In this document: positions 1,727 to 60,329 of the stretch, piece by piece | Position numbering within the stretch: position 1 is the first letter of the stretch | Layout: every line of letters begins with the position of its first letter | Assembly: GCF_044324785.1 (NCBI RefSeq) | Contig: NZ_CP172127.1 | Strand: one strand, 5' to 3' | Origin: Escherichia coli | Lineage (GTDB): Bacteria > Pseudomonadota > Gammaproteobacteria > Enterobacterales > Enterobacteriaceae | DNA length: 64,000 nt | Notes under the pieces: generated by a model | Database searches by the model: none | Seen by the model: only the letters and a program-made list of their open reading frames with translations | What the model was told of the DNA's origin: nothing | Made by a program: the position numbers and the translations under genes

Positions 1727-4168
1727 TCACTCTGCCACTTTTTTCTTCGCCGCACGCTTCGCTTTGGTCGCTGCGGCTATTTTCTGCGTTTTCGCCGATG
1801 GCTTTTTCGCTTTTCTCGCGTCTTTCTTCGCCGCTTTCGGTTTCGGTTTTTTCTCGCCGCGGAAGGCGCTGTCTGGCTCAAAGTTTACCTTTTTACCGAC
1901 CTGACGACGCTTGCCGCCTTTTTTGCCTGCATCGCCTTTTTTCGCTTTCTCGCGCGCCGTTTTACCGACGTTGCGCGGTGCGCGATCGCTGGAGATCAGG
2001 CTAAAGTCGATTTTACGCTCGTCCATATTAACCGCTTCGACGCGAACTTCCACGCGATCGCCCAGGCGATAAGTCTGGCCGCTGGATTCACCCATCAGGC
2101 GTTGCCCTACCTGGTCAAAGCGATAGTAGTCATTGTCCAGCGAAGAGACATGGACCAGACCATCAATGAACAAGTCGTCCAGACGGACGAAGAAGCCAAA
2201 GCCAGTGACGCTGGAAATTACGCCTTTAAAGACGTTACCTACCTGGTCGAGCATGAAGTCACACTTCAGCCAGTCAGCTACATCGCGTGTTGCTTCGTCG
2301 GCACGACGTTCCGCCATCGAACAGTGCTGACCCAGTTGCAGCATCTCTTCCATCGAATAATGGTAACCGCCGGTTTCAGTAGTGTTGCCCTGATGCCCCT
2401 GCTCTTTCGCCAGCAGATACTTAATGGCGCGGTGCAGCGTCAGGTCAGGATAACGACGAATCGGCGAAGTGAAGTGTGCATAGGACTGCAATGCCAGACC
2501 GAAGTGACCACGGTTTTCCGGATCGTAAATCGCCTGTTTCATCGAGCGCAGCAGCATGGTTTGCAGCATTTCTGCATCAGGACGATCAGCAACCGACTCC
2601 AGCAACTCCGCGTAGTCGCGCGGTTCCGGCTTGTTACCGCCCGGCAGTTCCAGCCCCAGCTCCGCCAGCACTGAACGGAAAGAGGTAATCGCTTCGGTGC
2701 TCGGCTTGTCGTGAATACGGAACAGTGCCGGTTCTTTCGCTTTCTCAACGAAACGCGCCGCCGAGATATTCGCCAGAATCATGCACTCTTCAATTAACTT
2801 GTGTGCGTCGTTACGCTGAGTCTGTTCGATACGCTCAATACGGCGTTCAGCGTTGAAAATGAACTTCGCTTCTTCGCTCTCAAATGAGATCCCGCCGCGT
2901 TCTTCACGGGCTTTATCCAGCACTTTATAGAGGTTATGCAACTCTTCGAGATGCTTAACCAGCGGGGCGTACTGCTCGCGCAGATCCTGATCGCCCTGCA
3001 GAATATGCCAGACTTTGGTGTAGGTCAGACGCGCGTGAGAGCTCATCACCGCTTCGTAGAATTTGTAGCCAGTCAGGCGGCCTTTCGACGAAACCGTCAT
3101 CTCGCACACCATACACAGGCGGTCTACCTGCGGGTTGAGCGAACACAGGCCGTTAGAGAGCACTTCCGGCAGCATCGGGATAACCTGCGAAGGGAAGTAC
3201 ACCGACGTACCACGGTTACGCGCTTCTCTGTCCAGCGGCGTTGGCGGACGCACATAGTAGCTGACGTCAGCAATCGCGACCCATAAACGCCAGCCGCCGC
3301 CGCGTTTTTTCTCGCAGTAAACTGCATCGTCAAAGTCACGGGCGTCTTCGCCATCAATGGTGACCAGCGGTAAATCGCGCAAATCGACACGGCCCGCTTT
3401 TGCTTCTTCCGGCACTTCTTCTTTCAGCCCGGCAACCTGTTGCTCAACAGCCTGCGGCCAGATGTACGGAATTTCATGGGTACGCAGAGCGATATCAACC
3501 GCCATGCCGGTGCCCATATTGTCGCCAAGTACTTCGACGATTTTACCCACCGCTTTGGTACGGCGAGTCGGGCGTTGGGTCAGTTCAACCACCACCACAA
3601 AGCCCATCCGCGCGCCCATGATCTGATCGGGCGGGATTAAGATATCGAAGCTCAAACGACTGTCGTCAGGAACCACAAAGCCGACGCCCGCTTCGGTAAA
3701 GTAGCGACCAACAATCTGGCTGGTTTTTGGCACCAGTACGCGGACAATACGCGCTTCACGACGACCTTTACGGTCAGCGCCCAGCGGCTGCGCCAGCACC
3801 TGATCGCCATGAATGCAGGTTTTCATCTGCTCGCTGGAGAGATACAAATCATCTTTACGCCCTTCAACCCGCAGAAAGCCGTAGCCATCACGGTGGCCAA
3901 TAACGGTACCTTTCACCAGGTCGAGGCGTTCCGGCAGCGCATAGCACTGACGACGAGTGAAGACCAGTTGACCATCGCGCTCCATCGCGCGCAGGCGGCG
4001 ACGCAGGCCTTCAAGCTGCTCTTCGCCTTCAATGTGCAGTTCTACCGCCAGCTCATCACGGCTGGCCGGTTTTTCACGTTTGGTTAAATGTTCGAGGATA
4101 AATTCCCGACTAGGGATGGGATTCGCGTATTTTTCAGCTTCGCGTTCCTGGAAAGGATCTTGTGACAT
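1727..4168 (-). CDS. rnr: Ribonuclease R
   Basis: ORF carries RNB and S1 domains and a lysine-rich C-terminal tail; start taken at the internal ATG (MSQDPFQ) to give 813 aa. Confidence 0.9.
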
Positions 4169-47327: not shown

Positions 47328-47403
47328 GCCCGGATAGCTCAGTCGGTAGAGCAGGGGATTGAAAATCCCCGTGTCCTTGGTTCGATTCCGAGTCCGGGCA
47401 CCA
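47328..47403 (+). tRNA. pheU: tRNA-Phe (GAA)
   Basis: gcccggatagctcagtcggtagagcaggggattgaaaatccccgtgtccttggttcgattccgagtccgggcacca, 76 nt with GAA anticodon; promoter-like ttgacg/tttaat upstream. Confidence 0.92.
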
Positions 47404-47579
47404 CTTTCACTTCCAGATTCATCTCCCGAACTCCACGAAACTCAAGTATAATCACATCGTTACAAGCAATCTGAACATCCTGAACTCCACCGAACTCTAC
47501 TGAACTCTCTCTCAATCAAGCGTTCATTGGGGGCACCGGTGGGGGCTCATTGTGTTCAGTCAGTTTCAGGAGCCCCCAT

Positions 47580-48764
47580 ATGGCACTTACAGCCAGACAG
47601 GTCGAAACAGCCAGACCTAAAGAAAAAGACTATAAACTCTCTGACGAACGTGGTTTATATCTGCTGGTAAAAACCACGGGTGCCCGCTACTGGCGGCTTA
47701 AATACCGGATAGCAGGAAAAGAGAAAAAACTGGCCCTCGGCGTCTATCCCGACGTCTCCCTTGCTGAAGCCAGAATCAAACGCGACGATGCCCGAAAAAT
47801 TATCTCCGAAGGTGGCGACCCGGGCGAAAAGAAGCGAAAGGAAAAACTCACTCAGAAAATCTCTGCCACCAATACGTTCCATGCCCTTGCTACGGAATGG
47901 CATCAGCATAAATCTTTGTCATGGTCTGAAAGTTACGCCAGAAGCGTACTGGAGGCTCTGGATAAAGATATTTTCCCGTATCTGGGCAAACGAAGCGTTA
48001 CTGATATCCTCCCGCTGGAAATGCTGGAAATTCTGCGCCGCATAGAAAAACGTGGCTCGCTGGAAAAACTTCGTAAGGTGCGTCAATACTGTAATCAGAT
48101 TTTTCGTTATGCCATCGCCACCGGACGAGCCACTGTCAATCCGGCATCTGAACTGACCAGTACGCTGGCGGCGCCAAAAGCTGCACATTTCCCCCACCTG
48201 AGAGCAGATGAGCTCCCTGTTTTTCTCCGGAAGCTCGCTGAATATCATGGCAGTCCTGTTACCCGCATGGCGACAAATCTGCTGCTTCTGACAGGCCTCA
48301 GAACGATTGAACTACGGTCCGCTGAATGGTCAGAAATTGATTTTGATAATGCCCTGTGGACAATCCCTGAAAGCCGCATGAAAATGCGACGTAAACATGT
48401 CGTACCACTGTCACGACAGGCCACTGACATTCTGCTGCAGCTCAAAACTTTCTCCGGACAATACCGGCTGGTTTTCCCGGGACGTTGTGATATCAACAAG
48501 CCAATGAGCGAAGCCAGCATCAATATGGTGCTCAAACGTATCGGTTACGATGGCAGGGCAACCGGTCATGGTTTTCGTCACACCATGAGTACCATTCTGC
48601 ACGAACAGGGCTTTAATTCTGCCTGGATTGAAATGCAGTTAGCTCATGTGGATAAAAATTCCATCAGGGGTACCTATAATCATGCCCTGTATCTCGATGG
48701 TCGCCGTGAAATGATGCAATGGTACGCTGACTACATTGATTCACTTTCCATCCAGGAGAGTTAA
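47580..48764 (+). CDS. P4-type tyrosine integrase adjacent to tRNA-Phe
   Basis: Start MALTARQVETARPKEKDYKLSDERGLYLLV with SD caggag upstream; catalytic R...HxxR...Y residues (HGFRHT, RGTYNHALY); N-terminal arm-binding-type domain. Confidence 0.88.
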   Translation: MALTARQVETARPKEKDYKLSDERGLYLLVKTTGARYWRLKYRIAGKEKKLALGVYPDVSLAEARIKRDDARKIISEGGDPGEKKRKEKLTQKISATNTFHALATEWHQHKSLSWSESYARSVLEALDKDIFPYLGKRSVTDILPLEMLEILRRIEKRGSLEKLRKVRQYCNQIFRYAIATGRATVNPASELTSTLAAPKAAHFPHLRADELPVFLRKLAEYHGSPVTRMATNLLLLTGLRTIELRSAEWSEIDFDNALWTIPESRMKMRRKHVVPLSRQATDILLQLKTFSGQYRLVFPGRCDINKPMSEASINMVLKRIGYDGRATGHGFRHTMSTILHEQGFNSAWIEMQLAHVDKNSIRGTYNHALYLDGRREMMQWYADYIDSLSIQES

Positions 48765-48849
48765 TTACACTTTGTCCTGAAATTATTCTCACAATCAATA
48801 ACCTTTCCCTCTGATCTTACAGATCAGAGGGATTCCGTTAACTTACAAT

Positions 48850-48889
48850 AAGTGATATTGGTTGTCTGGAGATTTAGGGGGACGGTCTA
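48850..48889. repeat. Solo IS2 left-end-like terminal repeat upstream of rafR
   Basis: aagtgatattggttgtctggagatttagggggacggtcta is near-identical to the terminal repeat of the complete IS2 at 58363-58402, in the same orientation. Confidence 0.5.
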
Positions 48890-48913
48890 CTATAATAATT
48901 AGCAGGAGATAAT

Positions 48914-49924
48914 ATGTCACTTAAGGCGATTGCCACTGCACTCGGAGTTTCTGTCACCACTGTCAGTCGGGCTCTTGGAGGCTATGCAGATGTGTCAGCT
49001 TCCACCCGTGCACGGGTGGAAGCTGAAGCTCGTCGACGCGGTTACCGTCCTAATACTCAGGCAAGAAGACTCAAAACCGGTAAAACCGATGCTGTCGGTC
49101 TGGTTTATCCTGGACGTGATGTGCCATTTAACAGTGGTGTTTTTATGGATATGGTCAGTTGCATCAGCCGGGAACTTGCTCACCATGATATTGACTTACT
49201 ACTGATAGCTGATGATGAGCATGCCGATTGCCACAGCTATATGCGGCTTGTTGAAAGTCGCAGGGTTGATGCTCTCATCATTGCACACACTCTGGATGAC
49301 GATCCCCGTATCACACACCTTCATAAAGCAGGTATTCCATTTCTGGCTCTTGGTCGGGTACCATCTGGTCTGCCCTGTGCGTGGTTTGACTTTGATAATC
49401 ATGCCGGGACTGGACAGGCAACCCAGAAACTGATTGCTTTGGGACATAAACGTATTGCATTGTTGAGTGAAGACACTTCACATAGCTATGTTGTTGCAAG
49501 ACGTCAGGGATGGCTTGATGCACTGAATGAGCATGAACTGGAAGATACATGGCTGCGGCTGGTTTCTCCCACACGGCGAGCAGGATATCAGGCCGTGATG
49601 GAGTTAATGTCACTACCGATACCACCAACAGCTATTATTACTGACAATGACCTGAGTGGAGATGGTGCTGCCATGGCACTGCAGTTGAGCGGTCGTCTTT
49701 CAGGAAAAGATGCGGTATCTCTGGTTGTATATGATGGTTTGCCACAGGACAGTATTATTGAGCTGGATGTGGCTGCAGTTATTCAGTCAACACGAAGCCT
49801 CGTTGGTCGCCAGATTTCCGAGATGATATATCAGATAATTACTGATTCATCATCAAAACCACTACAGGTTGTCTGGAACCCGGTATTTTATCCGGGAAAG
49901 ACGATTCATCCTCCTTGCTCCTGA
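48914..49924 (+). CDS. rafR: LacI-family raffinose operon repressor RafR
   Basis: N-terminal HTH (MSLKAIATALGVSVTTVSRALGG) plus periplasmic-binding-protein-like sugar domain; 336 aa; precedes rafA. Confidence 0.8.
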   Translation: MSLKAIATALGVSVTTVSRALGGYADVSASTRARVEAEARRRGYRPNTQARRLKTGKTDAVGLVYPGRDVPFNSGVFMDMVSCISRELAHHDIDLLLIADDEHADCHSYMRLVESRRVDALIIAHTLDDDPRITHLHKAGIPFLALGRVPSGLPCAWFDFDNHAGTGQATQKLIALGHKRIALLSEDTSHSYVVARRQGWLDALNEHELEDTWLRLVSPTRRAGYQAVMELMSLPIPPTAIITDNDLSGDGAAMALQLSGRLSGKDAVSLVVYDGLPQDSIIELDVAAVIQSTRSLVGRQISEMIYQIITDSSSKPLQVVWNPVFYPGKTIHPPCS

Positions 49925-49945: not shown

Positions 49946-49981
49946 TCCGAAACGTTTTGGTTGATACCCGAAACGTTTCGG
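49946..49981 (+). promoter_or_regulatory. Putative RafR operator pair flanking the rafA -35 box
   Basis: Near-palindrome tccgaaacgttttgg, then ttgata (-35-like), then the perfect palindrome ccgaaacgtttcgg, all in the rafR-rafA intergenic region. Confidence 0.55.
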
Positions 49982-50019: not shown

Positions 50020-52146
50020 ATGGTTTCAAAGTACTGCAGACTGAGCAGTCCTCGCTCTGATTTAATTATTAAAACCCGTCCACATGCAGAAATTATCTGG
50101 TGGGGCTCTGCACTGAAACATTTCTCACCGGATGACTGTGCCAGCCTGGAAAGACCGGTTGCGAATGGTCGTCTGGATATTGATACGCCACTAACACTGA
50201 TGGCTGAAAATGCCCTGGGACTTTTTAGCTCTCCGGGACTGGAAGGACACAGGAATGGGCTGGATGCATCTCCTGTTTTTTATACAGTTGACGTGGAACA
50301 TACCGAAAACACTCTGAGACTTACCAGTGAAGATTCGGTAGCCGGCCTGCGTCTGGTCAGCGAGCTGGTGATGACGCCATCAGGAATTCTGAAAGTTCGT
50401 CATGCACTGACCAACCTCAGAGAGGGGGACTGGCAGATAAATCGTTTCGCCATCACTTTACCTTTAGCGGAACGTGCGGAAGAAGTCATGGCTTTTCACG
50501 GACGCTGGACTCGTGAATTTCAGCCGCACAGGGTACGTCTCACTCATGATGCTTTTGTTCTGGAAAATCGCAGAGGGCGGACATCTCATGAGCATTTTCC
50601 GGCGCTGATTGTCGGCACGCCAGGCTTCTCGGAACAACAGGGAGAGGTGTGGGCTGTGCATCTGGGGTGGAGTGGAAATCACCGCATGAGATGTGAGGCA
50701 AAAACTGACGGCAGGCGTTACGTTCAGGCTGAGGCTCTGTGGATGCCGGGTGAGAAGGCTCTCAGGAAGAATGAAACCCTGTACACCCCGTGGCTATATG
50801 CCTGCCACTCTGCGGATGGCCTGAATGGAATGAGTCAGCAATACCATCGTTTTTTGCGTGATGAAATTATCCGTTTCCCTGAGCAAAAACCCCGCCCTGT
50901 ACATCTCAATACCTGGGAAGGTATTTATTTCAATCACAATCCTGATTACATCATGCAGATGGCTGAGCGTGCAGCAGCACTGGGCGTTGAACGTTTCATT
51001 ATTGATGATGGCTGGTTTAAAGGACGTAACGATGACCGCGCGGCTCTGGGCGACTGGTATACCGATGAACAGAAATACCCGAACGGGCTGATGCCGGTTA
51101 TTAAACATGTGAAATCTCTCGGTATGGAATTTGGCATATGGGTTGAGCCGGAAATGATTAACCCGGATTCTGACCTGTTTCGTCTTCATCCTGACTGGGT
51201 ATTGTCAATGCCTGGATATTCCCAGCCAACCGGAAGATATCAGTATGTTCTTAACCTGAATATTCCAGAGGCCTTTGCTTACATTTATGAACGTTTCTTA
51301 TGGTTACTGGGAGAACATCCGGTTGATTATGTGAAATGGGACATGAATCGTGAGCTTGTACAGGCAGGGCATGAAGGCCGTGCGGCAGCAGATGCACAGA
51401 CCCGTCAGTTCTATCGATTGCTTGATCTCCTCCGTGAACGTTTTCCACATGTTGAGTTTGAGTCCTGTGCTTCCGGTGGGGGGCGTATTGACTTCGAAGT
51501 CCTGAAACGCACACACCGGTTCTGGGCATCTGACAATAATGATGCCCTGGAGCGCTGCACCATACAACGTGGCATGAGTTACTTTTTCCCTCCTGAGGTG
51601 ATGGGGGCGCATATTGGCCATCGCCGCTGCCATGCAACTTTCCGGCAGCACAGCATCGCTTTTCGTGGGCTGACGGCATTGTTCGGCCATATGGGGCTGG
51701 AGCTGGATCCGGTGGCCGCAGATGCGAAGGAATCTGACGGTTATCGCCGGTATGCCTTGCTCTATAAAGAATGGCGACAACTGATTCATACAGGAGTTCT
51801 CTGGCGTGTGGATATGCCAGATCCTTCGATACAGGTTCAGGGAGTCGTCAGCCCTGATCAGTCTCAGGCACTTTTTATGATCAGCCAGCTTGCAATGCCG
51901 GATTACACCTTACCAGGCATACTTCGTTTTCCCGGTCTGGCGGCGGAAGTGCGTTACCGGCTTCGGGTTATTGATCACCCGGACCTCCAGGTGGTTGGTG
52001 AAGGCGGTCATACCATGCGCAAATTACCTGTCTGGATGAATCAGAGCCTTGAGGCCAGTGGTGAATGGCTGGCACAGGGAGGGATTCAGCTCCCCGTACT
52101 GGATCCGGAGAGTGCGATTTTGATAGCACTTGAAAGAGCTGTGTGA
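50020..52146 (+). CDS. rafA: Alpha-galactosidase (GH36) RafA
   Basis: 708-aa ORF with GH36 architecture; SD aaaggag upstream; first gene of the rafABD cluster. Confidence 0.85.
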   Translation: MVSKYCRLSSPRSDLIIKTRPHAEIIWWGSALKHFSPDDCASLERPVANGRLDIDTPLTLMAENALGLFSSPGLEGHRNGLDASPVFYTVDVEHTENTLRLTSEDSVAGLRLVSELVMTPSGILKVRHALTNLREGDWQINRFAITLPLAERAEEVMAFHGRWTREFQPHRVRLTHDAFVLENRRGRTSHEHFPALIVGTPGFSEQQGEVWAVHLGWSGNHRMRCEAKTDGRRYVQAEALWMPGEKALRKNETLYTPWLYACHSADGLNGMSQQYHRFLRDEIIRFPEQKPRPVHLNTWEGIYFNHNPDYIMQMAERAAALGVERFIIDDGWFKGRNDDRAALGDWYTDEQKYPNGLMPVIKHVKSLGMEFGIWVEPEMINPDSDLFRLHPDWVLSMPGYSQPTGRYQYVLNLNIPEAFAYIYERFLWLLGEHPVDYVKWDMNRELVQAGHEGRAAADAQTRQFYRLLDLLRERFPHVEFESCASGGGRIDFEVLKRTHRFWASDNNDALERCTIQRGMSYFFPPEVMGAHIGHRRCHATFRQHSIAFRGLTALFGHMGLELDPVAADAKESDGYRRYALLYKEWRQLIHTGVLWRVDMPDPSIQVQGVVSPDQSQALFMISQLAMPDYTLPGILRFPGLAAEVRYRLRVIDHPDLQVVGEGGHTMRKLPVWMNQSLEASGEWLAQGGIQLPVLDPESAILIALERAV

Positions 52147-52208
52147 AGAGAGGTACGGAGCCTCAGCTCCGTCCTGTTTCTCAATATTATCCCGTGAGGG
52201 TAAGAATA

Positions 52209-53486
52209 ATGAATTCTGCAAGTACGCATAAAAATCCCGATTTCTGGATTTTCGGTCTGTTCTTCTTTCTCTACTTTTTCATCATGGCAACCTGTTTTCC
52301 GTTTTTGCCTGTATGGCTGTCCGATGTGGTCGGACTGAGTAAAACGGATACAGGTATAGTCTTTTCATGTCTTTCTCTGTTTGCCATCAGTTTCCAGCCA
52401 TTGCTTGGGGTCATATCAGATCGCCTGGGACTGAAAAAAAACCTGATCTGGAGTATCAGCCTGTTACTTGTATTTTTCGCCCCCTTTTTTTTATATGTAT
52501 TTGCGCCCCTGCTGCGCTTCAATATCTGGGCAGGCGCACTGACTGGCGGTGTCTTTATTGGTTTTGTGTTTTCTGCAGGTGCCGGAGCTATTGAAGCTTA
52601 TATAGAGCGGGTCAGTCGCAGTCGTGGATTTGAATACGGTAAAGCGAGGATGTTCGGGTGTCTGGGCTGGGCGTTATGTGCGGCTATGGCTGGAATGCTT
52701 TTTAATGTCGATCCTTCTCTGGTTTTCTGGATGGGGTCAGTAAGCGCATTATTGTTGCTTCTTCTGTTGTTTCTGGCGCGCCCCAGTACCAGCCAGACGG
52801 CAATGGTTATGAATACACTGGGTGCCAATTCTTCCCTGATTTCGACCAGAATGGTCTTCAGCCTGTTTCGCATGCGTCAGATGTGGATGTTTGTTCTCTA
52901 CACGATTGGTGTGGCCTGTGTCTATGATGTATTTGATCAGCAGTTTGCCACATTTTTTCGTTCATTCTTTGACACTCCTCAGGCAGGAATAAAAGCATTC
53001 GGATTTGCTACCACTGCGGGGGAGATTTGTAATGCCATTATCATGTTCTGTACACCATGGATAATTCATCGCATTGGTGCCAAAAATACCCTGCTTGTTG
53101 CGGGGGGAATTATGACCATCCGCATTACCGGTTCTGCTTTTGCCACCACCGCGACAGAAGTGGTGATTCTGAAAATGCTTCACGCTCTTGAAGTTCCATT
53201 TTTGCTGGTTGGGGCGTTCAAATATATTACGGCAGTGTTTGACACCCGACTGTCAGCGACCGTTTATTTAATAGGTTTTCAGTTTTCCAAACAACTTGCT
53301 GCAATACTTCTCTCTACCTTTGCCGGCCACCTGTATGATCGTATGGGATTCCAGAATACGTATTTTGTGCTCGGGATGATTGCTCTGACTGTTACCGTGA
53401 TATCAGTTTTCACGCTGAGTTCTTCCCGCGGGAGCGTACACCCTTCTGTAGAAAAAGCCCCTGCAGCGCATTCGGAGATTAACTGA
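52209..53486 (+). CDS. rafB: Raffinose permease RafB (LacY-like MFS symporter)
   Basis: Start inferred at MNSASTHKNPDFWIFGLFFFLYFFIMATCFPFLPVWL (LacY-like N-terminus), about 425 aa with 12 TM segments. Confidence 0.85.
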   Translation: MNSASTHKNPDFWIFGLFFFLYFFIMATCFPFLPVWLSDVVGLSKTDTGIVFSCLSLFAISFQPLLGVISDRLGLKKNLIWSISLLLVFFAPFFLYVFAPLLRFNIWAGALTGGVFIGFVFSAGAGAIEAYIERVSRSRGFEYGKARMFGCLGWALCAAMAGMLFNVDPSLVFWMGSVSALLLLLLLFLARPSTSQTAMVMNTLGANSSLISTRMVFSLFRMRQMWMFVLYTIGVACVYDVFDQQFATFFRSFFDTPQAGIKAFGFATTAGEICNAIIMFCTPWIIHRIGAKNTLLVAGGIMTIRITGSAFATTATEVVILKMLHALEVPFLLVGAFKYITAVFDTRLSATVYLIGFQFSKQLAAILLSTFAGHLYDRMGFQNTYFVLGMIALTVTVISVFTLSSSRGSVHPSVEKAPAAHSEIN

Positions 53487-54916
53487 TGAAACAGCGTCTT
53501 GCTTTGGCACAGTCTGCCCTTGAAAAACTTTGCGCACGTCGTGGTAATGCCTGGTACCCGATTTTTCATCTGGCTCCACCTGCCGGCTGGATGAATGATC
53601 CAAATGGCCTTATTTACTTCAATGGGCGTTACCATGCGTTCTTCCAGCATCATCCTGCAAGCGCATATCAGGGGCCAATGCACTGGGGGCATGCCACCAG
53701 TACCGACATGTTGCACTGGCAACACGAACCTGTCGCGCTGGCACCCGGAGATAAATATGATCGTGATGGCTGTTTTTCAGGGAGTGCCGTGGATGATGAT
53801 GGCGTGCTATCACTTATTTATACTGGTCATATTTGTCTCGATGATCGTGGTAATGACAGCATTATCCGTGAAGTACAGTGTCTGGCTACAAGTCATGATG
53901 GTATTCACTTTGAGAAGCAGGGCTGTGTGCTGACACCTCCGGAAGGTATAATGCATTTCCGTGATCCCAAAGTCTGGCACGAAGACGGCTCCTGGTGGAT
54001 GGTCATTGGTGCCCGGGACGCTTCTGACAATGGGCAAGTTCTGTTGTATCGCGGGACATCTTTGCGGGACTGGCATCTGGAGCATGTTCTTGCTCATTCC
54101 GCAGCCGGAAAAAGTTATATGTGGGAATGCCCCGATTTCTTCAGGTGTGGTAATTTTCACTGGCTGATGTTCTCACCACAGGGGATGCCCCCTTCCGGTT
54201 ATCGGTTCCGTAACCTTTTTCAGAGCGGTGTGTTGGCAGGGAGCTGGAAGCCTGGTTCTGTCTTTGCGCTGAAAGGGGGATTTGAAGAGCTGGATTATGG
54301 TCATGACTTTTATGCTCCACAGTCCATGCTGGCTGAGGACGGCAGGCGTATCATTATGGCATGGATGAATATGTGGGATTCACCCGTGCCCACCCGCAGT
54401 GAAGCCTGGGCAGGATGTCTGACGCTGCCCAGAGAGGTTTTTGAGCGCGATGGCCGGCTGTGCCAGCGACCTGTGCGTGAAGTCGAATCTCTGCGCAAAA
54501 AATGCCAGCCATTATCCCCTGTAAGGTTACAGGGTTTGCAATTACTGACCGAAAATGTACAGGCCGCAGAATTATTGGTGACGTGGCATACGGTTGACAG
54601 TCATGCGGAGCACTATGGCGTCCGCCTTGGAGACGGTCTGCGACTTTATGTGGATAATCAGGCCGGGCGACTGGTACTGTGGCGCTATTACCCTGAGGAA
54701 GGGTTGGATGGTTACCGCAGTGTTGAACTTCCTGATACAGAATATCTGACTCTTCGTATTTTCTTGGATCGTTCATCTGTTGAAGTGTTTGTTAACGATG
54801 GTGAGGCAACCTTATCAAGTCGTATTTATCCGCAAGCGGACTCGAGACAATTATCGTTATATGCCGCTCATGGCGATGCGATATTAACTGATGGCACTTT
54901 ATGGATGCTGACCTGA
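53486..54916 (+). CDS. rafD: Sucrose-6-phosphate hydrolase/invertase (GH32) RafD
   Basis: GH32 signature WMNDPNG plus the RDP and EC motifs; start overlaps the rafB stop (TGATG). Confidence 0.85.
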   Translation: MKQRLALAQSALEKLCARRGNAWYPIFHLAPPAGWMNDPNGLIYFNGRYHAFFQHHPASAYQGPMHWGHATSTDMLHWQHEPVALAPGDKYDRDGCFSGSAVDDDGVLSLIYTGHICLDDRGNDSIIREVQCLATSHDGIHFEKQGCVLTPPEGIMHFRDPKVWHEDGSWWMVIGARDASDNGQVLLYRGTSLRDWHLEHVLAHSAAGKSYMWECPDFFRCGNFHWLMFSPQGMPPSGYRFRNLFQSGVLAGSWKPGSVFALKGGFEELDYGHDFYAPQSMLAEDGRRIIMAWMNMWDSPVPTRSEAWAGCLTLPREVFERDGRLCQRPVREVESLRKKCQPLSPVRLQGLQLLTENVQAAELLVTWHTVDSHAEHYGVRLGDGLRLYVDNQAGRLVLWRYYPEEGLDGYRSVELPDTEYLTLRIFLDRSSVEVFVNDGEATLSSRIYPQADSRQLSLYAAHGDAILTDGTLWMLT

Positions 54917-55110
54917 GACATATCGATATCAGTATTTTTTCTGACATTATCTGTCATTACTTTGCCAGTACACATTAATTATCTTTGCTGTGTGCTTTTG
55001 GTAATGTGTTGCGATTATATATACCAGTCTGGTGAAGAATATGAATGGTATTTTGTGTTGATACAGAGAATATAAGAGTACCCACATTTGTTTTTATTTA
55101 AGGGGGTAAA

Positions 55111-56505
55111 ATGAATAAGTTACTTTTGGGTTTATCTCTTTTTTTATTACTGGAATACAATGCGTGTGCAGCAAAAACAGGGGGGCTAACGCTTGAACAA
55201 AGAATGGCATTGCTGGAAGAACGCCTGGAAGCTGCAGAAAAAAGGGCGGAAAAAGCAGAAAGAATGTTAAAGAGTTTTGATATAGAACAACATTCTGAAA
55301 TACGTCAAATTAGTTCAGAGCAGAATAAAAAAGATGCTAACAGCTATGCAGTAGTTGAGTCAACAAAAGAAAAAACATCTTCTCCAGGTTTTCTGCTCTC
55401 TGGTTACAATGATTTGAAGTTTTATGGTGATGTGGAGTTTAATATAGATGCTGCCAGTAAACCCGGTCAGTTAGTAATGATAAGTTCCGGGGCGAACAGT
55501 GAGTCAGTGAATGAACGGTGGGACCTTAATGGCCGTATTCTATTAGGTTTTGACGGTACCCGTAAGCTTGATAATGGTTATTTCGCTGGATTTTCAGCAC
55601 AACCACTGGCGGATATGCACGGTTCAGTGAATATTGATGATGCATTATTCTTTTTTGGAAAAGATGACGAGTGGAAAGTGAAAGTCGGTCGTTTTGAAGC
55701 TTACGATATGTTCCCTCTAAATCAGGATACTTTCATTGAGTATTCCGGTAATACAGCTAATGATATTTATGCTGATGGCCGTGGTTATATCTATATGATG
55801 AAAGAGGGACGCGGTCGTTCTGACGCTGGTGGTAATTTCCTCATCAGTAAACAACTCGATAACTGGTATTTTGAGTTAAACACGTTACTTGAAGACGGAA
55901 CATCTTTATATAATAACGGTAATTATCATGGACGATATATGGAGCAGCAGAAAAATGTCGCTTATCTGCGCCCGGTAATTGCCTGGTCGCCAACGGAAGA
56001 ATTCACAGTCTCCGCAGCGATGGAAGCGAACGTGGTAAAAAATGCTTATGGCTATACCGATAATAAGGGGAATTTTGTCGATCAGTCCAATCGTTCCGGT
56101 TATGGTATTAGCATGACATGGAACGGTCTGAAAACAGATCCGGAAAATGGCATCGTGGTTACTCTTAATACCGCCTATTTGGATGCCAGTAATGAGAAAG
56201 ATTTCACTGCCAGTATTAATGCTCTGTGGAAACGTTTCGAACTGGGTTATATCTACGCACATAATAAGATTGATGAATTTAGTGGTGTCGTGTGTAATAA
56301 TGGTTGCTGGATTGATGGTGAAGGAATATACAACATTCACACCATTCATGCATCTTATCAGTTTGCTAATGTGATGGATATGGAGAACTTTAATATTTAC
56401 CTCGGGGCTTATTACTCAATTCTGGATAGTAACTGTAGATATAGTAATTGTGACATTACCGATGATCGTTACGGTGCCCGATTACGTTTCAAATACTTTT
56501 TTTGA
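55111..56505 (+). CDS. rafY: Raffinose glycoporin RafY
   Basis: 464-aa protein with signal peptide, N-terminal coiled-coil (LEERLEAAEKRAEKAERMLK) and beta-rich body ending in an aromatic residue (RFKYFF), typical of outer-membrane porins. Confidence 0.8.
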   Translation: MNKLLLGLSLFLLLEYNACAAKTGGLTLEQRMALLEERLEAAEKRAEKAERMLKSFDIEQHSEIRQISSEQNKKDANSYAVVESTKEKTSSPGFLLSGYNDLKFYGDVEFNIDAASKPGQLVMISSGANSESVNERWDLNGRILLGFDGTRKLDNGYFAGFSAQPLADMHGSVNIDDALFFFGKDDEWKVKVGRFEAYDMFPLNQDTFIEYSGNTANDIYADGRGYIYMMKEGRGRSDAGGNFLISKQLDNWYFELNTLLEDGTSLYNNGNYHGRYMEQQKNVAYLRPVIAWSPTEEFTVSAAMEANVVKNAYGYTDNKGNFVDQSNRSGYGISMTWNGLKTDPENGIVVTLNTAYLDASNEKDFTASINALWKRFELGYIYAHNKIDEFSGVVCNNGCWIDGEGIYNIHTIHASYQFANVMDMENFNIYLGAYYSILDSNCRYSNCDITDDRYGARLRFKYFF

Positions 56506-57005: not shown

Positions 57006-57071
57006 GGTAATGACTCCAACTTATTGATAGTGTTTTATGTTCAGATAATGCCCGATGACTTTGTCATGCAG
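57006..57071. mobile_element. IS1 terminal fragment (66 bp), truncated by the IS2 insertion
   Basis: ggtaatgactccaacttattgatagtgttttatgttcagataatgcccgatgactttgtcatgcag is identical to the first 66 bp of the complete IS1 at 59354; it abuts the IS2 end directly. Confidence 0.8.
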
Positions 57072-57082
57072 TGGATTTGCCC

Positions 57083-57988
57083 CTATATTTCCAGACACCT
57101 GTTATCACTTAACCCATTACTGGTCCGCTGCCGCAGATATTCCCGTGGCGAGCGATAACCCAGCGCACTATGCGGATGCCATTCGTTATAATGCTCGAAC
57201 GCCTCTGCAAGGTTCTTTGCTGCCGTTAACCCGTCTGGTTTGGGCATGATACTGATGTAGTCACGCTTTATCGTTTTCACGAAGCTCTCTGCTATTCCGT
57301 TACTCTCCGGACTCCGCACCGCCGTGTTCTTCGGTTCAAGTCCCAACATCCGGGCGAACTGGCGTGTTTCATTAGCCCGGTAGCATGAACCATTATCCGT
57401 CAGCCACTCCACTGGAGACGACGGAAGATCGTTGCCGAAGCGGCGTTCCACCGCTCCTGGCATGACGTCCTGTACTGTTTCACTGTTGAAGCCGCCGGTA
57501 GTGACCGCCCAGTGCAGTGCCTCACGATCACAGCAGTCCAGCGCGAACGTGACACGCAGTCTCTCTCCGTTATCACAGCAGAACTCGAACCCGTCAGAGC
57601 ACCATCGCTGATTGCTTTCTTTCACGGCCACTCTGCCAGTATGTGCCCGTTTCGATGGCGGTACAGCGGTTTTTCGCTCAAGCAACAGCGCATTCTGGCG
57701 CATGATCCGGTAAACACGTTTGGCATTGATCGCAGGCATACCATCAAGTTCGGCCTGTCTGCGAAGCAGCGCCCATACCCGACGATAACCATACGTGGGC
57801 AGCTCTCCGATAACATGGTGTATACGGAGAAGCACATCCGTATCATCTGAGTGACGGCTGCGGCGACCATCTTTCCAGTCATCGGTTCGTCTGAGAATTA
57901 CGTGCAACTGCGCACGCGACACCCGGAGACAACGGCTGACTAAGCTTACTCCCCATCCCCGGGCAATAAGGGCGCGTGCGCTATCCAC
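57083..57988 (-). CDS. insD: IS2 transposase OrfB (InsD)
   Basis: 301-aa DDE transposase [30 protein letters not shown]. Confidence 0.92.
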
Positions 57989-58311
57989 TTTTTTGCACGC
58001 CCGTATTCAACGGCTTCTTTAAGGAGTTCATTTTCCATCGTTTTTTTGCCGAGCAGGCGCTGGAGTTCTTTAATCTGCTTCATGGCAGCAGCAAGTTCAG
58101 AGGCAGGAACGACCTGCTCTCCTGCGGCCACAGCAGTAAGACTTCCCTCCTGGTATTGCTTGCGCCAGAGAAATAACTGGCTGGCTGCCACACCGTGTTG
58201 CCGGGCAACAAGGGAGACCGTCATTCCCGGTTCAAAACTCTGCTGAACAATAGCGATCTTTTCCTGTGTAGTACGCCGTCTGCGTTTCTCCGGTCCTAAG
58301 ACATCAATCAT
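57946..58311 (-). CDS. insC: IS2 OrfA (InsC)
   Basis: Start [43 protein letters not shown] protein; 3' end overlaps insD in the programmed frameshift arrangement. Confidence 0.9.
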
Positions 58312-58562
58312 CTGCTCTCCAATGACTAGTCTAAAAACTAGTATTAAGACTATCACTTATTTAAGTGATATTGGTTGTCTGGAGATTCATGGGGCCAGTC
58401 TAGCAGATTATGGTGCGCAGTTATACAACAGCAGTAATGAGGAGTCTACTATTTCTCTTGTTATGCCAGATGCAATTGAATGGAACGGAAAGAATACGCC
58501 AAGACGGCAATACATGATAAAATATATTGCCGTATTTAAATATTAAAATTTATTTTTGTAGA

Positions 58563-58952
58563 TCATCTGAATTTTCGGTGACCTTCAAGTTTTATATCGT
58601 TCATTTTATCCAGAGACTCACGTAATGATTCTATATTCCCGTCCTCAACTTTCTTTTTTGCAATATTGATTTCATGTTGTAGTTTTTTTAACTCTTCCTT
58701 ATAACTATCTACAGAAACTTTATCATTAACATCTATCTTTTCAGGAATAATATTCATAGAAGAATCTACAGATTTATCCATCATTTCAAGAGCATTTAAT
58801 AGTGATGATTTATCATTGGAAGATTGTAGAATACTCATACTTTTGGCAAGAGACTGCATGTTTTTATCCAGGCCGGAAGCCAAAGATACGTTGCTGAGAG
58901 ATAAAAAAATAGCTAGTACAGCACCTGAGAAAAATACCTTTTGTTTTTTCAT
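58563..58952 (-). CDS. Secreted cytochrome b562-like four-helix-bundle protein (divergent CybC homolog)
   Basis: Start MKKQKVFFSGAVLAIFLSLSNVSLA (signal peptide); mature region aligns with cytochrome b562 including the Met heme ligand (SGLDKNM vs ADLEDNM) and C-terminal His (LEGHRKFR vs NAYHQKYR). Confidence 0.6.
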   Translation of the reverse strand: MKKQKVFFSGAVLAIFLSLSNVSLASGLDKNMQSLAKSMSILQSSNDKSSLLNALEMMDKSVDSSMNIIPEKIDVNDKVSVDSYKEELKKLQHEINIAKKKVEDGNIESLRESLDKMNDIKLEGHRKFR

Positions 58953-59368
58953 TAATATATTCCTGTTCAAAGTTGATTATAGTTATGTCAATTTAAGTTT
59001 ATTATTATGATTTTTTATTTTTGTACTATGAATCTCCTGTATGCTTATATGTGCAGAAAATCTCATTTTATCAAGAAGAATATCAAATTTTCTCCGATAC
59101 TTCTACATACTCCATCATTCATGCTCCTTTTATCCGTGCACCGTAAAACCCCGTCCTTCAGCGGGGGATATAAGGCGCTGTTTTCCACCTAACCAGGTGT
59201 CTGCTGCTATTCAATGTATTGGCGGATGACGGATGCCGCCCGTTGAAGCAGGACCCCTCGTCCTTAGGGCGTGGAGGATGTCAAAATGAAAACTTGTGGT
59301 ATGAATCAATCCATTCATCATCCTTTCGGATCATTGCATTCAGTATAACGCTGGGTAATGACTCCAAC

Positions 59369-59872
59369 TTATTGATAGTGTTTTATGTTCAGATAATGCC
59401 CGATGACTTTGTCATGCAGCTCCACCGATTTTGAGAACGACAGCGACTTCCGTCCCAGCCGTGCCAGGTGCTGCCTCAGATTCAGGTTATGCCGCTCAAT
59501 TCGCTGCGTATATCGCTTGCTGATTACGTGCAGCTTTCCCTTCAGGCGGGATTCATACAGCGGCCAGCCATCCGTCATCCATATCACCACGTCAAAGGGT
59601 GACAGCAGGCTCATAAGACGCCCCAGCGTCGCCATAGTGCGTTCACCGAATACGTGCGCAACAACCGTCTTCCGGAGACTGTCATACGCGTAAAACAGCC
59701 AGCGCTGGCGCGATTTAGCCCCGACATAGCCCCACTGTTCGTCCATTTCCGCGCAGACGATGACGTCACTGCCCGGCTGTATGCGCGAGGTTACCGACTG
59801 CGGCCTGAGTTTTTTAAGTGACGTAAAATCGTGTTGAGGCCAACGCCCATAATGCGTGCACTGGCACGACAT
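59369..59872 (-). CDS. insB: IS1 InsB
   Basis: 167 aa, [37 protein letters not shown]. Confidence 0.92.
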
Positions 59873-60066
59873 CCGACGCCATTCATGGCCATATCAATGA
59901 TTTTCTGGTGCGTACCGGGTTGAGAGGCGGTGTAAGTGAACTGTAGTTGCCATGTTTTACGGCAATGAGAGCAGAGATAGCGCTGATGTCCGGCAGTGCT
60001 TTTGCCGTTACGCACCACGCCTTCAGGAGCGGAGCAGGAAGGACATCTGATGGAAATGGAAGCCAC
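59791..60066 (-). CDS. insA: IS1 InsA
   Basis: 91 aa, [40 protein letters not shown]. Confidence 0.92.
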
Positions 60067-60329
60067 GCAAGCACCTTAAAATCACCATCATACACTAAAT
60101 CAGTAAGTTGGCACCATTACCTGACCAAGCTTCCTCTATTGCGGCACCTGATTGCATCAATATCGAAAGTGATAAGATCCTCTCACTAGCAGGGCATGAC
60201 AAGTGTAACTGCTGATTTGTTAGCCTGTTTTAAGTTTTTTAAGATCAATTATTTCTCATTTTTTGACTTTATTGCTAGCCGTGAAAATGCAAAGCCTATA
60301 GGATACAAAAATTACAATTTGTAGGTTTT

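Follow-up and report, generated by a model that had tools for sequence, protein, structure and literature searches.

The raf operon of pRSD2-type plasmids consists of rafRABD and rafY, and the repressor gene rafR is part of the plasmid-borne operon (PMC4809568). A 69-kb insertion with rafRABDY has been described in strains CRE1540, 14EC017, MRY15-117, WCHEC4533, HB-Coli0 and H8 (PMC6392093), all of which are among the 100%-identical matches obtained in this study. The ends of the insertion sequence IS2 are also well described. Footprinting has defined the cleavage and protein-binding domains of its left and right inverted repeats (IRL and IRR), and its minicircle promoter Pjunc is reported to need a spacer of exactly 17 bp, being dead at 18 bp (PMC3299598). 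Fusion promoters made by IS2 are documented at ampC, neoR and acrEF, where they are attributed to the IRR end and not to the IRL (PMC9330008).

The locus described here can be compared with each of these systems, and also with composite transposons of the Tn9/Tn10 type and with the solo terminal repeats that remain when the body of an insertion sequence is deleted. It lies in a 64,000-nucleotide stretch of Escherichia coli contig NZ_CP172127.1 (assembly GCF_044324785.1), hereafter called the window. The raf genes of the window are the same as those of the pRSD2-type plasmid operon and of the chromosomal 69-kb raf insertion of ST167 strain Sanji and its relatives, with DNA identities of 98.8–100%, and the IncF plasmid pIP1206 has the same junction of an IS2 scar with rafR. 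In contrast to the plasmid and Sanji modules, the module of the window is located in a pheU island, has an intact integrase gene and carries a scar allele that is 8 bp shorter. The searchable literature on rafR or raffinose together with IS2, which does not extend to the original raf papers (Aslanidis 1989, 1990), contains no published account of this scar.

The attachment site of the island is the tRNA-Phe gene pheU (47328–47403, plus strand), whose upstream neighbours are cutA-dsbD-yjdC. The tyrosine integrase gene of the island (47580–48764, plus strand) is followed by a hairpin with a 12-bp stem (48806–48832, plus strand), which has a calculated dG of −21.7 kcal/mol and a z-score of −7.8 but no U-tract. 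The solo IS2 end comes next, and behind it lie the Shine-Dalgarno sequence AGGAG of rafR (48904–48908, plus strand), 5 nt 5′ of the ATG, and rafR itself (48914–49924, plus strand), which encodes a LacI-family raffinose repressor. The genes rafA, rafB, rafD and rafY, for alpha-galactosidase, permease, invertase and porin, occupy 50020–56505 on the plus strand. At 500 bp past rafY, a 66-bp end fragment of IS1 (57006–57071, plus strand) abuts the IRR of a complete IS2 of 1331 bp (57072–58402, minus strand). This copy has the same orientation as the solo end, and both of its ORFs exceed the NCBIfam cut-offs for IS2 TnpA and TnpB. Its right flank contains the cytochrome b562 gene cybC (58563–58970, minus strand), and a full IS1 is located at 59354–60121.

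The initial annotation had placed an IS2 left-end repeat without an attached transposase between the integrase stop codon and the rafR ribosome-binding site, and both statements hold; the repeat is located between the integrase stop (48764) and the rafR start (48914). The 41 bp at 48849–48889 (minus strand, TAGACCGTCCCCCTAAATCTCCAGACAACCAATATCACTTA), with the tip at 48889 facing rafR, are a solo IS2 left end, which is an ordinary insertion-sequence scar. They agree with the canonical 41-nt IS2 IRL at 38 of 41 positions, with three mismatches, and with the IRL of the complete IS2 at 37 of 41 in a direct alignment, whereas, in a three-way alignment of the solo end with the IRL and IRR of that copy, the fit to the IRR was much worse. 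The inner 24 nt are identical in the two left ends, and BLAST reports an exact core of 26 nt common to the solo IRL and the local IS2, so that the similarity is neither shorter than 25 bp nor at the level of chance. Scanning of the 64 kb with the canonical IRL at up to three mismatches returned two sites, namely the solo IRL (three mismatches) and the IRL of the complete IS2 at 58362–58402 (one mismatch), and 100 dinucleotide-preserving shuffles returned 0 matches. A chance likeness, or the end of an element other than IS2, would have only the three to four mismatches of this allele in its favour. It is opposed by the shuffles and by the plasmid allele of the same locus, which is identical to the IS2 IRL at 41 of 41 positions, and we regard its probability as practically negligible.

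Compared with the published anatomy of IS2 ends (PMC3299598), the similarity probably extends inward to about 48841, where the alignments with IS2 copies of other genomes begin. The additional bases (48841–48848, minus strand) are probably a degenerate remnant of the OrfA-site and hairpin region: position 42 and the OrfA-site region depart from the IS2 sequence, and the ACTTA/TAAGT hairpin arm just inside the IRL carries a 1-nt indel relative to IS2. The joint between the IS2-derived bases and the integrase flank lies between about 48833 and 48841. In a search of the whole window, no other IS2 sequence was found to adjoin the solo IRL, neither a transposase gene nor a partner IRR; the integrase 3′ flank and the hairpin occupy the place where the body of the element would be. 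Of the 42-bp IRL, the orfA and orfB genes and the partner IRR of a complete IS2, only the IRL sequence is present at this site, as orfA and orfB are missing and no inverted IRR lies about 1.3 kb away. The other end of the original insertion, where the second copy of a 5-bp target duplication would lie, has been deleted. The sole IRR in the window (57072–57112) is part of the complete IS2, and no degenerate IS2 ends were found elsewhere in the window, including the vicinity of 56635. The scar is similar to other solo terminal repeats left by deletion of an IS body in that it matches the IS2 IRL, has no transposase or partner end, and is inherited with its locus. It differs from the usual ones because its terminal 8 bp are missing, yet the flank restores a tip-like TAGAC, and because hundreds of genomes and plasmids share it as a fixed feature of a gene boundary.

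To describe the distribution of the junction, we used a 161-bp stretch across the scar as the query and counted matches at full length. The initial annotation had suggested looking for it on other raf-carrying replicons, and it recurs there: it is present in 451 of 5426 complete E. coli genomes and in 148 PLSDB plasmids, and the raf-plasmid records include E. coli and Klebsiella hosts. The inner joint, at which TTAACTTACAA runs directly into TAAGTGAT, is found in every copy that we read (the window and comparison loci L001–L006 and L021–L025). Because all of these copies have the same inner joint, they point to one ancestral event. Among the PLSDB plasmids, the integrase flank plus scar and the scar-rafR junction were both counted 148 times, which gives no sign of a scar apart from rafR on plasmids. 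These equal counts, together with the presence of a single end only, do not conform to a MITE, which would have both terminal repeats around a short core and occur in multiple copies. Among the loci compared, the combination of the hairpin and the joint sequence did not occur outside raf loci.

The scar exists as two alleles. The long allele, carried by IncF plasmids such as pIP1206, has an IRL that is perfect over 41 bp; eight additional bases, ACGGTCTA, separate it from CTATAAT. The short allele, carried by the pheU and pheV chromosomal islands including that of the window, is without CCAGTCTA, precisely the 8 bp at the end of the IRL, and also has one C-to-T change. Every chromosomal copy read has the short form, and every plasmid copy read has the long form. 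A junction-specific 54-mer detected the long allele in 173 genomes, and the full-length matches that we sampled were all in plasmid-sized records. The complete integrase-rafR stretch is present in 282 genomes. Full-length copies of the short allele were found in 0 PLSDB plasmids; among the full-length matches on plasmids, the best reached 95.2% identity. A metagenome scan that allowed any spacer length returned just the two alleles, and there, too, the long allele adjoined an integrase gene truncated by IS2.

Two further variations were noted among these copies. The 3-nt loop of the hairpin (48818–48820) is TAC in the window and the plasmids and GTA in other chromosomal copies (L003, L004, L023 and L024), with identical stems. 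TAC and GTA are reverse complements, and such a flip is of the kind made by template switching at palindromes. On metagenome contig SKDY01012474.1 (L024), the homology to rafR ends at the window-equivalent position 49276 and is followed by an IS1 end. This suggests that the repressor gene of this contig is disrupted by IS1, and constitutive raf expression would be expected.

The plasmid modules begin inside the integrase gene, at a position corresponding to 48005 of the window, where they are abutted by a complete IS2. Only the 3′ 760 bp of the integrase gene are kept. Because the plasmids retain this truncated gene, the plasmid module appears to derive from an island-type ancestor with an intact integrase. 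The flanks of the plasmid IS2 (GGAAC and TCCTC) do not form a target duplication, and an insertion sequence without target duplication is typical of recombination between IS copies rather than simple insertion. The 8.6-kb segment common to plasmids and chromosomes extends from 48005 to about 56635, where gradual divergence sets in and no IS2 end is present. In pIP1206, two genes for group II intron reverse transcriptase/maturase (L002 1095–2762 and 6801–8468) are located a few kb upstream of the IS2-raf module.

On the chromosome, the integrase-scar-raf stretch is found at pheU in the window (47328–48764) and at pheV in strain 104 (L001 13929–15365). The raf-less pheV islands (L017 and L018) have the integrase gene and 32 bp past its stop codon in common with the window, up to 48796, and then diverge. 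Their integrases are 95–98% identical, and directly 3′ follow a different terminator hairpin, 418 bp (2952–3369) and a gene for a TPR protein. The raf island of strain 104 has, in place of those 418 bp, the whole block that begins at 48797 and comprises raf and its IS debris. The TPR gene of the raf-less islands is also present in strain 104, past the raf/IS block (L001 24377–25402).

We consider that the solo end is probably an old, passively inherited scar of one IS2 insertion upstream of rafR, and we infer the following order of events. In the common ancestor of the raf modules of IncF plasmids and of pheU/pheV islands, IS2 would have inserted about 32 bp 5′ of the rafR start codon, and this insertion would have displaced the native upstream region of rafR. 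A later deletion would have taken the IS2 body and its IRR, fusing the last 41–49 bp or so, that is, the IRL, to the 3′ flank of the integrase gene. The scar would then have been inherited passively with rafR, and the chromosomal lineage, including that of the window, would have lost the terminal 8 bp of the IRL and changed one base. The more distant raf lineages, whose rafR genes are 89% and 77% identical to that of the window at the DNA level, have only GCAGGAGA(T/A)AATATG upstream of rafR in common with the window. One of them has a promoter-like site about 85–110 nt upstream of rafR, in a region that is absent here.

The long allele is likely to be the ancestral one. This direction is assigned by parsimony, because an 8-bp insertion plus a substitution could not plausibly build a perfect IRL. 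No outgroup with the scar was found, and a search of genome contigs with the RafR peptide returned only distant LacI-family genes of Caulobacter and actinomycetes, none of which could serve as an outgroup. The indel (window 48882–48889 compared with L002 12878–12893) has exactly the extent of the last 8 bp of the IRL, and TAGACCGT, the octamer just outside, agrees with the IRL tip (TAGACTGG) in 6 of 8 bases. The likeness of TAGACCGT to TAGACTGG is the reason why the short allele still resembles an IRL with few mismatches. Neither the exact 8-bp extent of the indel nor this match to the tip is explained by a purely passive history. Two simple mechanisms were considered and rejected: gene conversion from the neighbouring IS2, considered for the perfect IRL of the plasmids, would not lengthen the sequence by 8 bp, and slippage between two GTCTA repeats, as a source of the 8-bp loss, would leave CCAGTCTA where ACGGTCTA is observed. 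If a full-length insertion sequence were to have TAGACCGTCCCCCTAAATC as its native left end, the short form would be the ancestral one and the element would not be IS2 proper.

IS2 is found upstream of rafR in other raf lineages as well, at three more positions within 140 bp. The distance from the tip to the ATG is 24 nt for the short-allele IRL scar of the window and 32 nt for the long-allele IRL scar of the IncF plasmids. It is 104 nt in IncFII contigs with an 89% identical rafR, where a complete IS2 has its IRR facing rafR, and 105 nt in a K88 (F4)-Raf plasmid, where a complete IS2 has its IRL facing rafR. A sister of the latter plasmid has an IS2 end at 136 nt, with the IRL facing rafR and no transposase annotated in its record, and the lineage with a 77% identical rafR has an IS2-like element at 334 nt. 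This recurrence suggests that IS2 has a target preference here or that IS2-mediated recombination takes place at the border of the raf cargo, and it is a hint that targeting or selection, and not one accident, may have been involved. A complete IS2 at precisely the junction of the window was looked for in raf loci but not found.

Several details of these neighbouring insertions were observed. In the sister contigs L010 and L011, two different elements end at the same base, about 104 nt upstream of rafR (5896/5897): a complete IS2, the IRR of which faces rafR, and a decayed IS3-family element. NZ_CP078136.1 (L019/L026) and CP099214.1 (L020/L027), both with an 89% identical rafR, have an IS2 IRL facing rafR at positions 31 bp apart. 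The insertion in the former (L019) removes a −35-like CTGACA hexamer, which the latter (L020) retains. In NZ_CP078136.1 (L026), IS2 separates raf from the K88 (F4) fimbrial operon.

Because its native upstream region is absent here, rafR must be transcribed either from a local promoter or by read-through from the integrase gene. In the plasmids, the integrase gene is truncated by an IS2 whose transposase gene is on the strand opposite to rafR, yet the repressor is assumed to be made, and a local promoter is therefore the better guess. The best candidate for its −10 element is a consensus TATAAT hexamer (48891–48896, plus strand), which lies 1 nt outside the IRL tip and is present in both alleles. 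Judging from the sequence, rafR is most likely transcribed from this hexamer with a leader of about 10–13 nt; a consensus −10 element can function with a poor −35 element. The promoter scan also found a −35-like TGGAGA hexamer inside the IRL (48867–48872, plus strand), so that the repeat may add a weak −35 element in this allele, although it would not be required. A promoter role of the repeat is plausible to this extent. The initial annotation had suggested that the end contributes promoter elements for rafR, and this stands in part: a −35-like hexamer does lie inside the repeat, but the consensus −10 hexamer lies outside it, and the spacing falls within the 16–18 bp of a fusion promoter only in the chromosomal allele. 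No RafR operators, which would point to autoregulation, were found near the scar, O1 and O2 being located at 49947–49960 and 49968–49981, and an Rfam search of 48500–49200 gave no match. On the minus strand, both alleles have promoter-like matches directed leftward into the scar, GTGACA-17-TATTAT (48920–48892) and GTGGCA-16-TATTAT (48936–48909), and no ORF or known RNA lies downstream of them.

A larger role for the repeat would follow if TGGAGA of the IRL and the flanking TATAAT formed a hybrid promoter that drives rafR, the 8-bp loss having been retained because it shortened the spacing from 26 bp to 18 bp. The combination TGGAGA-18-TATAAT has a score of 10/12 in the window, while the two hexamers are 26 bp apart in the plasmid allele, where the scan gave no plus-strand promoter match. 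This lineage lacks the native sequence upstream of rafR, and TGGAGA is by position the homologue of the −35 hexamer that the IRR provides for Pjunc (PMC3299598); the capacity of IS2 to make fusion promoters is itself established at the three genes named above (PMC9330008). However, TGGAGA matches the −35 consensus at just 4 of 6 positions, and the spacer is 18 bp, a length at which Pjunc is dead, so that the −35 contribution may be nil. The known fusion promoters use the IRR and not the IRL. Furthermore, the plasmid-borne operon, in which the spacing is 26 bp, is described as including a working repressor (PMC4809568), which implies that the −35 hexamer is not required. A hybrid promoter of this kind is thus possible but unlikely. 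The combined proposal, that the 8-bp loss turned an inert remnant into a Pjunc-like hybrid promoter and that the region upstream of rafR, with four independent insertion positions within 140 bp across raf lineages, is a preferred landing site of IS2, seems distinctly doubtful to us. The arrangement does resemble Pjunc and the IS2 fusion promoters in that an outward −35-like hexamer is located near an IS end and a −10 element just past the tip. It departs from them in the use of the IRL, in the spacer of 18 bp (26 bp in the plasmid allele) and in the presence of an IS remnant only, and it is a prediction from the sequence. The IS2 fusion promoter at ampC was reportedly described by Jaurin and Normark in 1983.

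The two other explanations to be weighed assign the solo end a role in transposition. The initial annotation had read the IS2-type ends on both sides of raf as a possible footprint of a composite transposon. In its full form, raf would once have been located between two IS2 copies and moved with them as a unit, the left copy having decayed to the IRL and the right copy being the complete IS2 at 57072–58402. The locus is indeed like Tn9/Tn10-type composites in that directly oriented IS2-type ends enclose a catabolic cargo. The complete IS2 is co-oriented with the solo IRL, and the raf-facing ends of the two, IRL and IRR, are those expected for the inner ends of a direct-repeat composite; moreover, IS2 borders rafR in several independent raf lineages, and the plasmid raf modules have a complete IS2 on the left. 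In contrast to Tn9 and Tn10, one of the two copies is represented here by a 41-bp inner end only, and there is no outer left IRR, without which raf could not be moved. The downstream IS2 is inserted at the broken edge of the 66-bp IS1 fragment and has the flanks ATGCAG and GCAGATT, which contain a 4-bp repeat (GCAG) and not a 5-bp duplication. Nor is this right-hand IS2 conserved. The rafY-IS1 fragment-IS2 arrangement occurs in 0 PLSDB plasmids, the arrangement with a complete IS2 and the same right flank is found in only 17 of 5426 genomes, and in other genomes, such as that of strain 104, the IS2 is cut short by IS1. The IS2-cybC junction is also present in matches that end at the IS2 end and contain no raf sequence. 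For two raf plasmids with an upstream IS2, the annotation lists no IS2 transposase downstream of raf. The block common to plasmids and chromosome is bounded by neither the solo end nor the downstream IS2, and the plasmid IS2, lacking a target duplication, fits recombination between IS copies. Outward ends that bracket the module, a target duplication of the unit and copies of the unit at unrelated sites were all lacking. The composite reading was thus not borne out, and we give it very little credence.

A different possibility is that the end can still be used as a substrate. IS2 transposase supplied in trans might bind the solo IRL together with a nearby IRR and cause rearrangements, or move the 2.2-kb unit of IS2, truncated integrase gene and IRL that is present in the plasmids. 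In the plasmid allele all 41 bp of the IRL are perfect, and with them the footprinted cleavage and protein-binding domains (PMC3299598); a complete IS2 is located 843 bp upstream and is oriented such that its IRR and the solo IRL form a proper IRR...IRL pair. The chromosomal 8-bp loss also stops exactly at the transposon tip, where the transposase acts. Against this, the two equal PLSDB counts provide no indication of any movement of the 2.2-kb unit, the sequence departs from IS2 at position 42 and in the OrfA-site region, and the allele of the window has two changes in the first 8 bp of the outer cleavage domain. We therefore judge such an activity improbable. The passive scar, which we favour, is a boundary marker and not a working transposon end. 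It cannot mobilise raf, with or without the IS2 at 57072–58402, because its tip faces raf and no partner IRR is present on its other side.

For the raf family, the inner joint is useful as a lineage marker, which indicates that the raf modules of IncF plasmids and of pheU/pheV islands share one ancestor. The truncated plasmid integrase gene indicates that the module moved from a tRNA-Phe island to plasmids, and the 8-bp allele cleanly divides the plasmid and island lineages in the copies read. The second matter that we infer is promoter use: rafR has lost its native upstream region here and would now depend on a −10 box beside an IS end, which involves no new mechanism. In this respect, the locus would provide a small, testable case of an insertion sequence rewiring the promoter of a repressor. 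If the 8-bp loss did create a hybrid promoter, the dosage of the repressor and the inducibility of raf would be expected to differ between chromosomal and plasmid operons.
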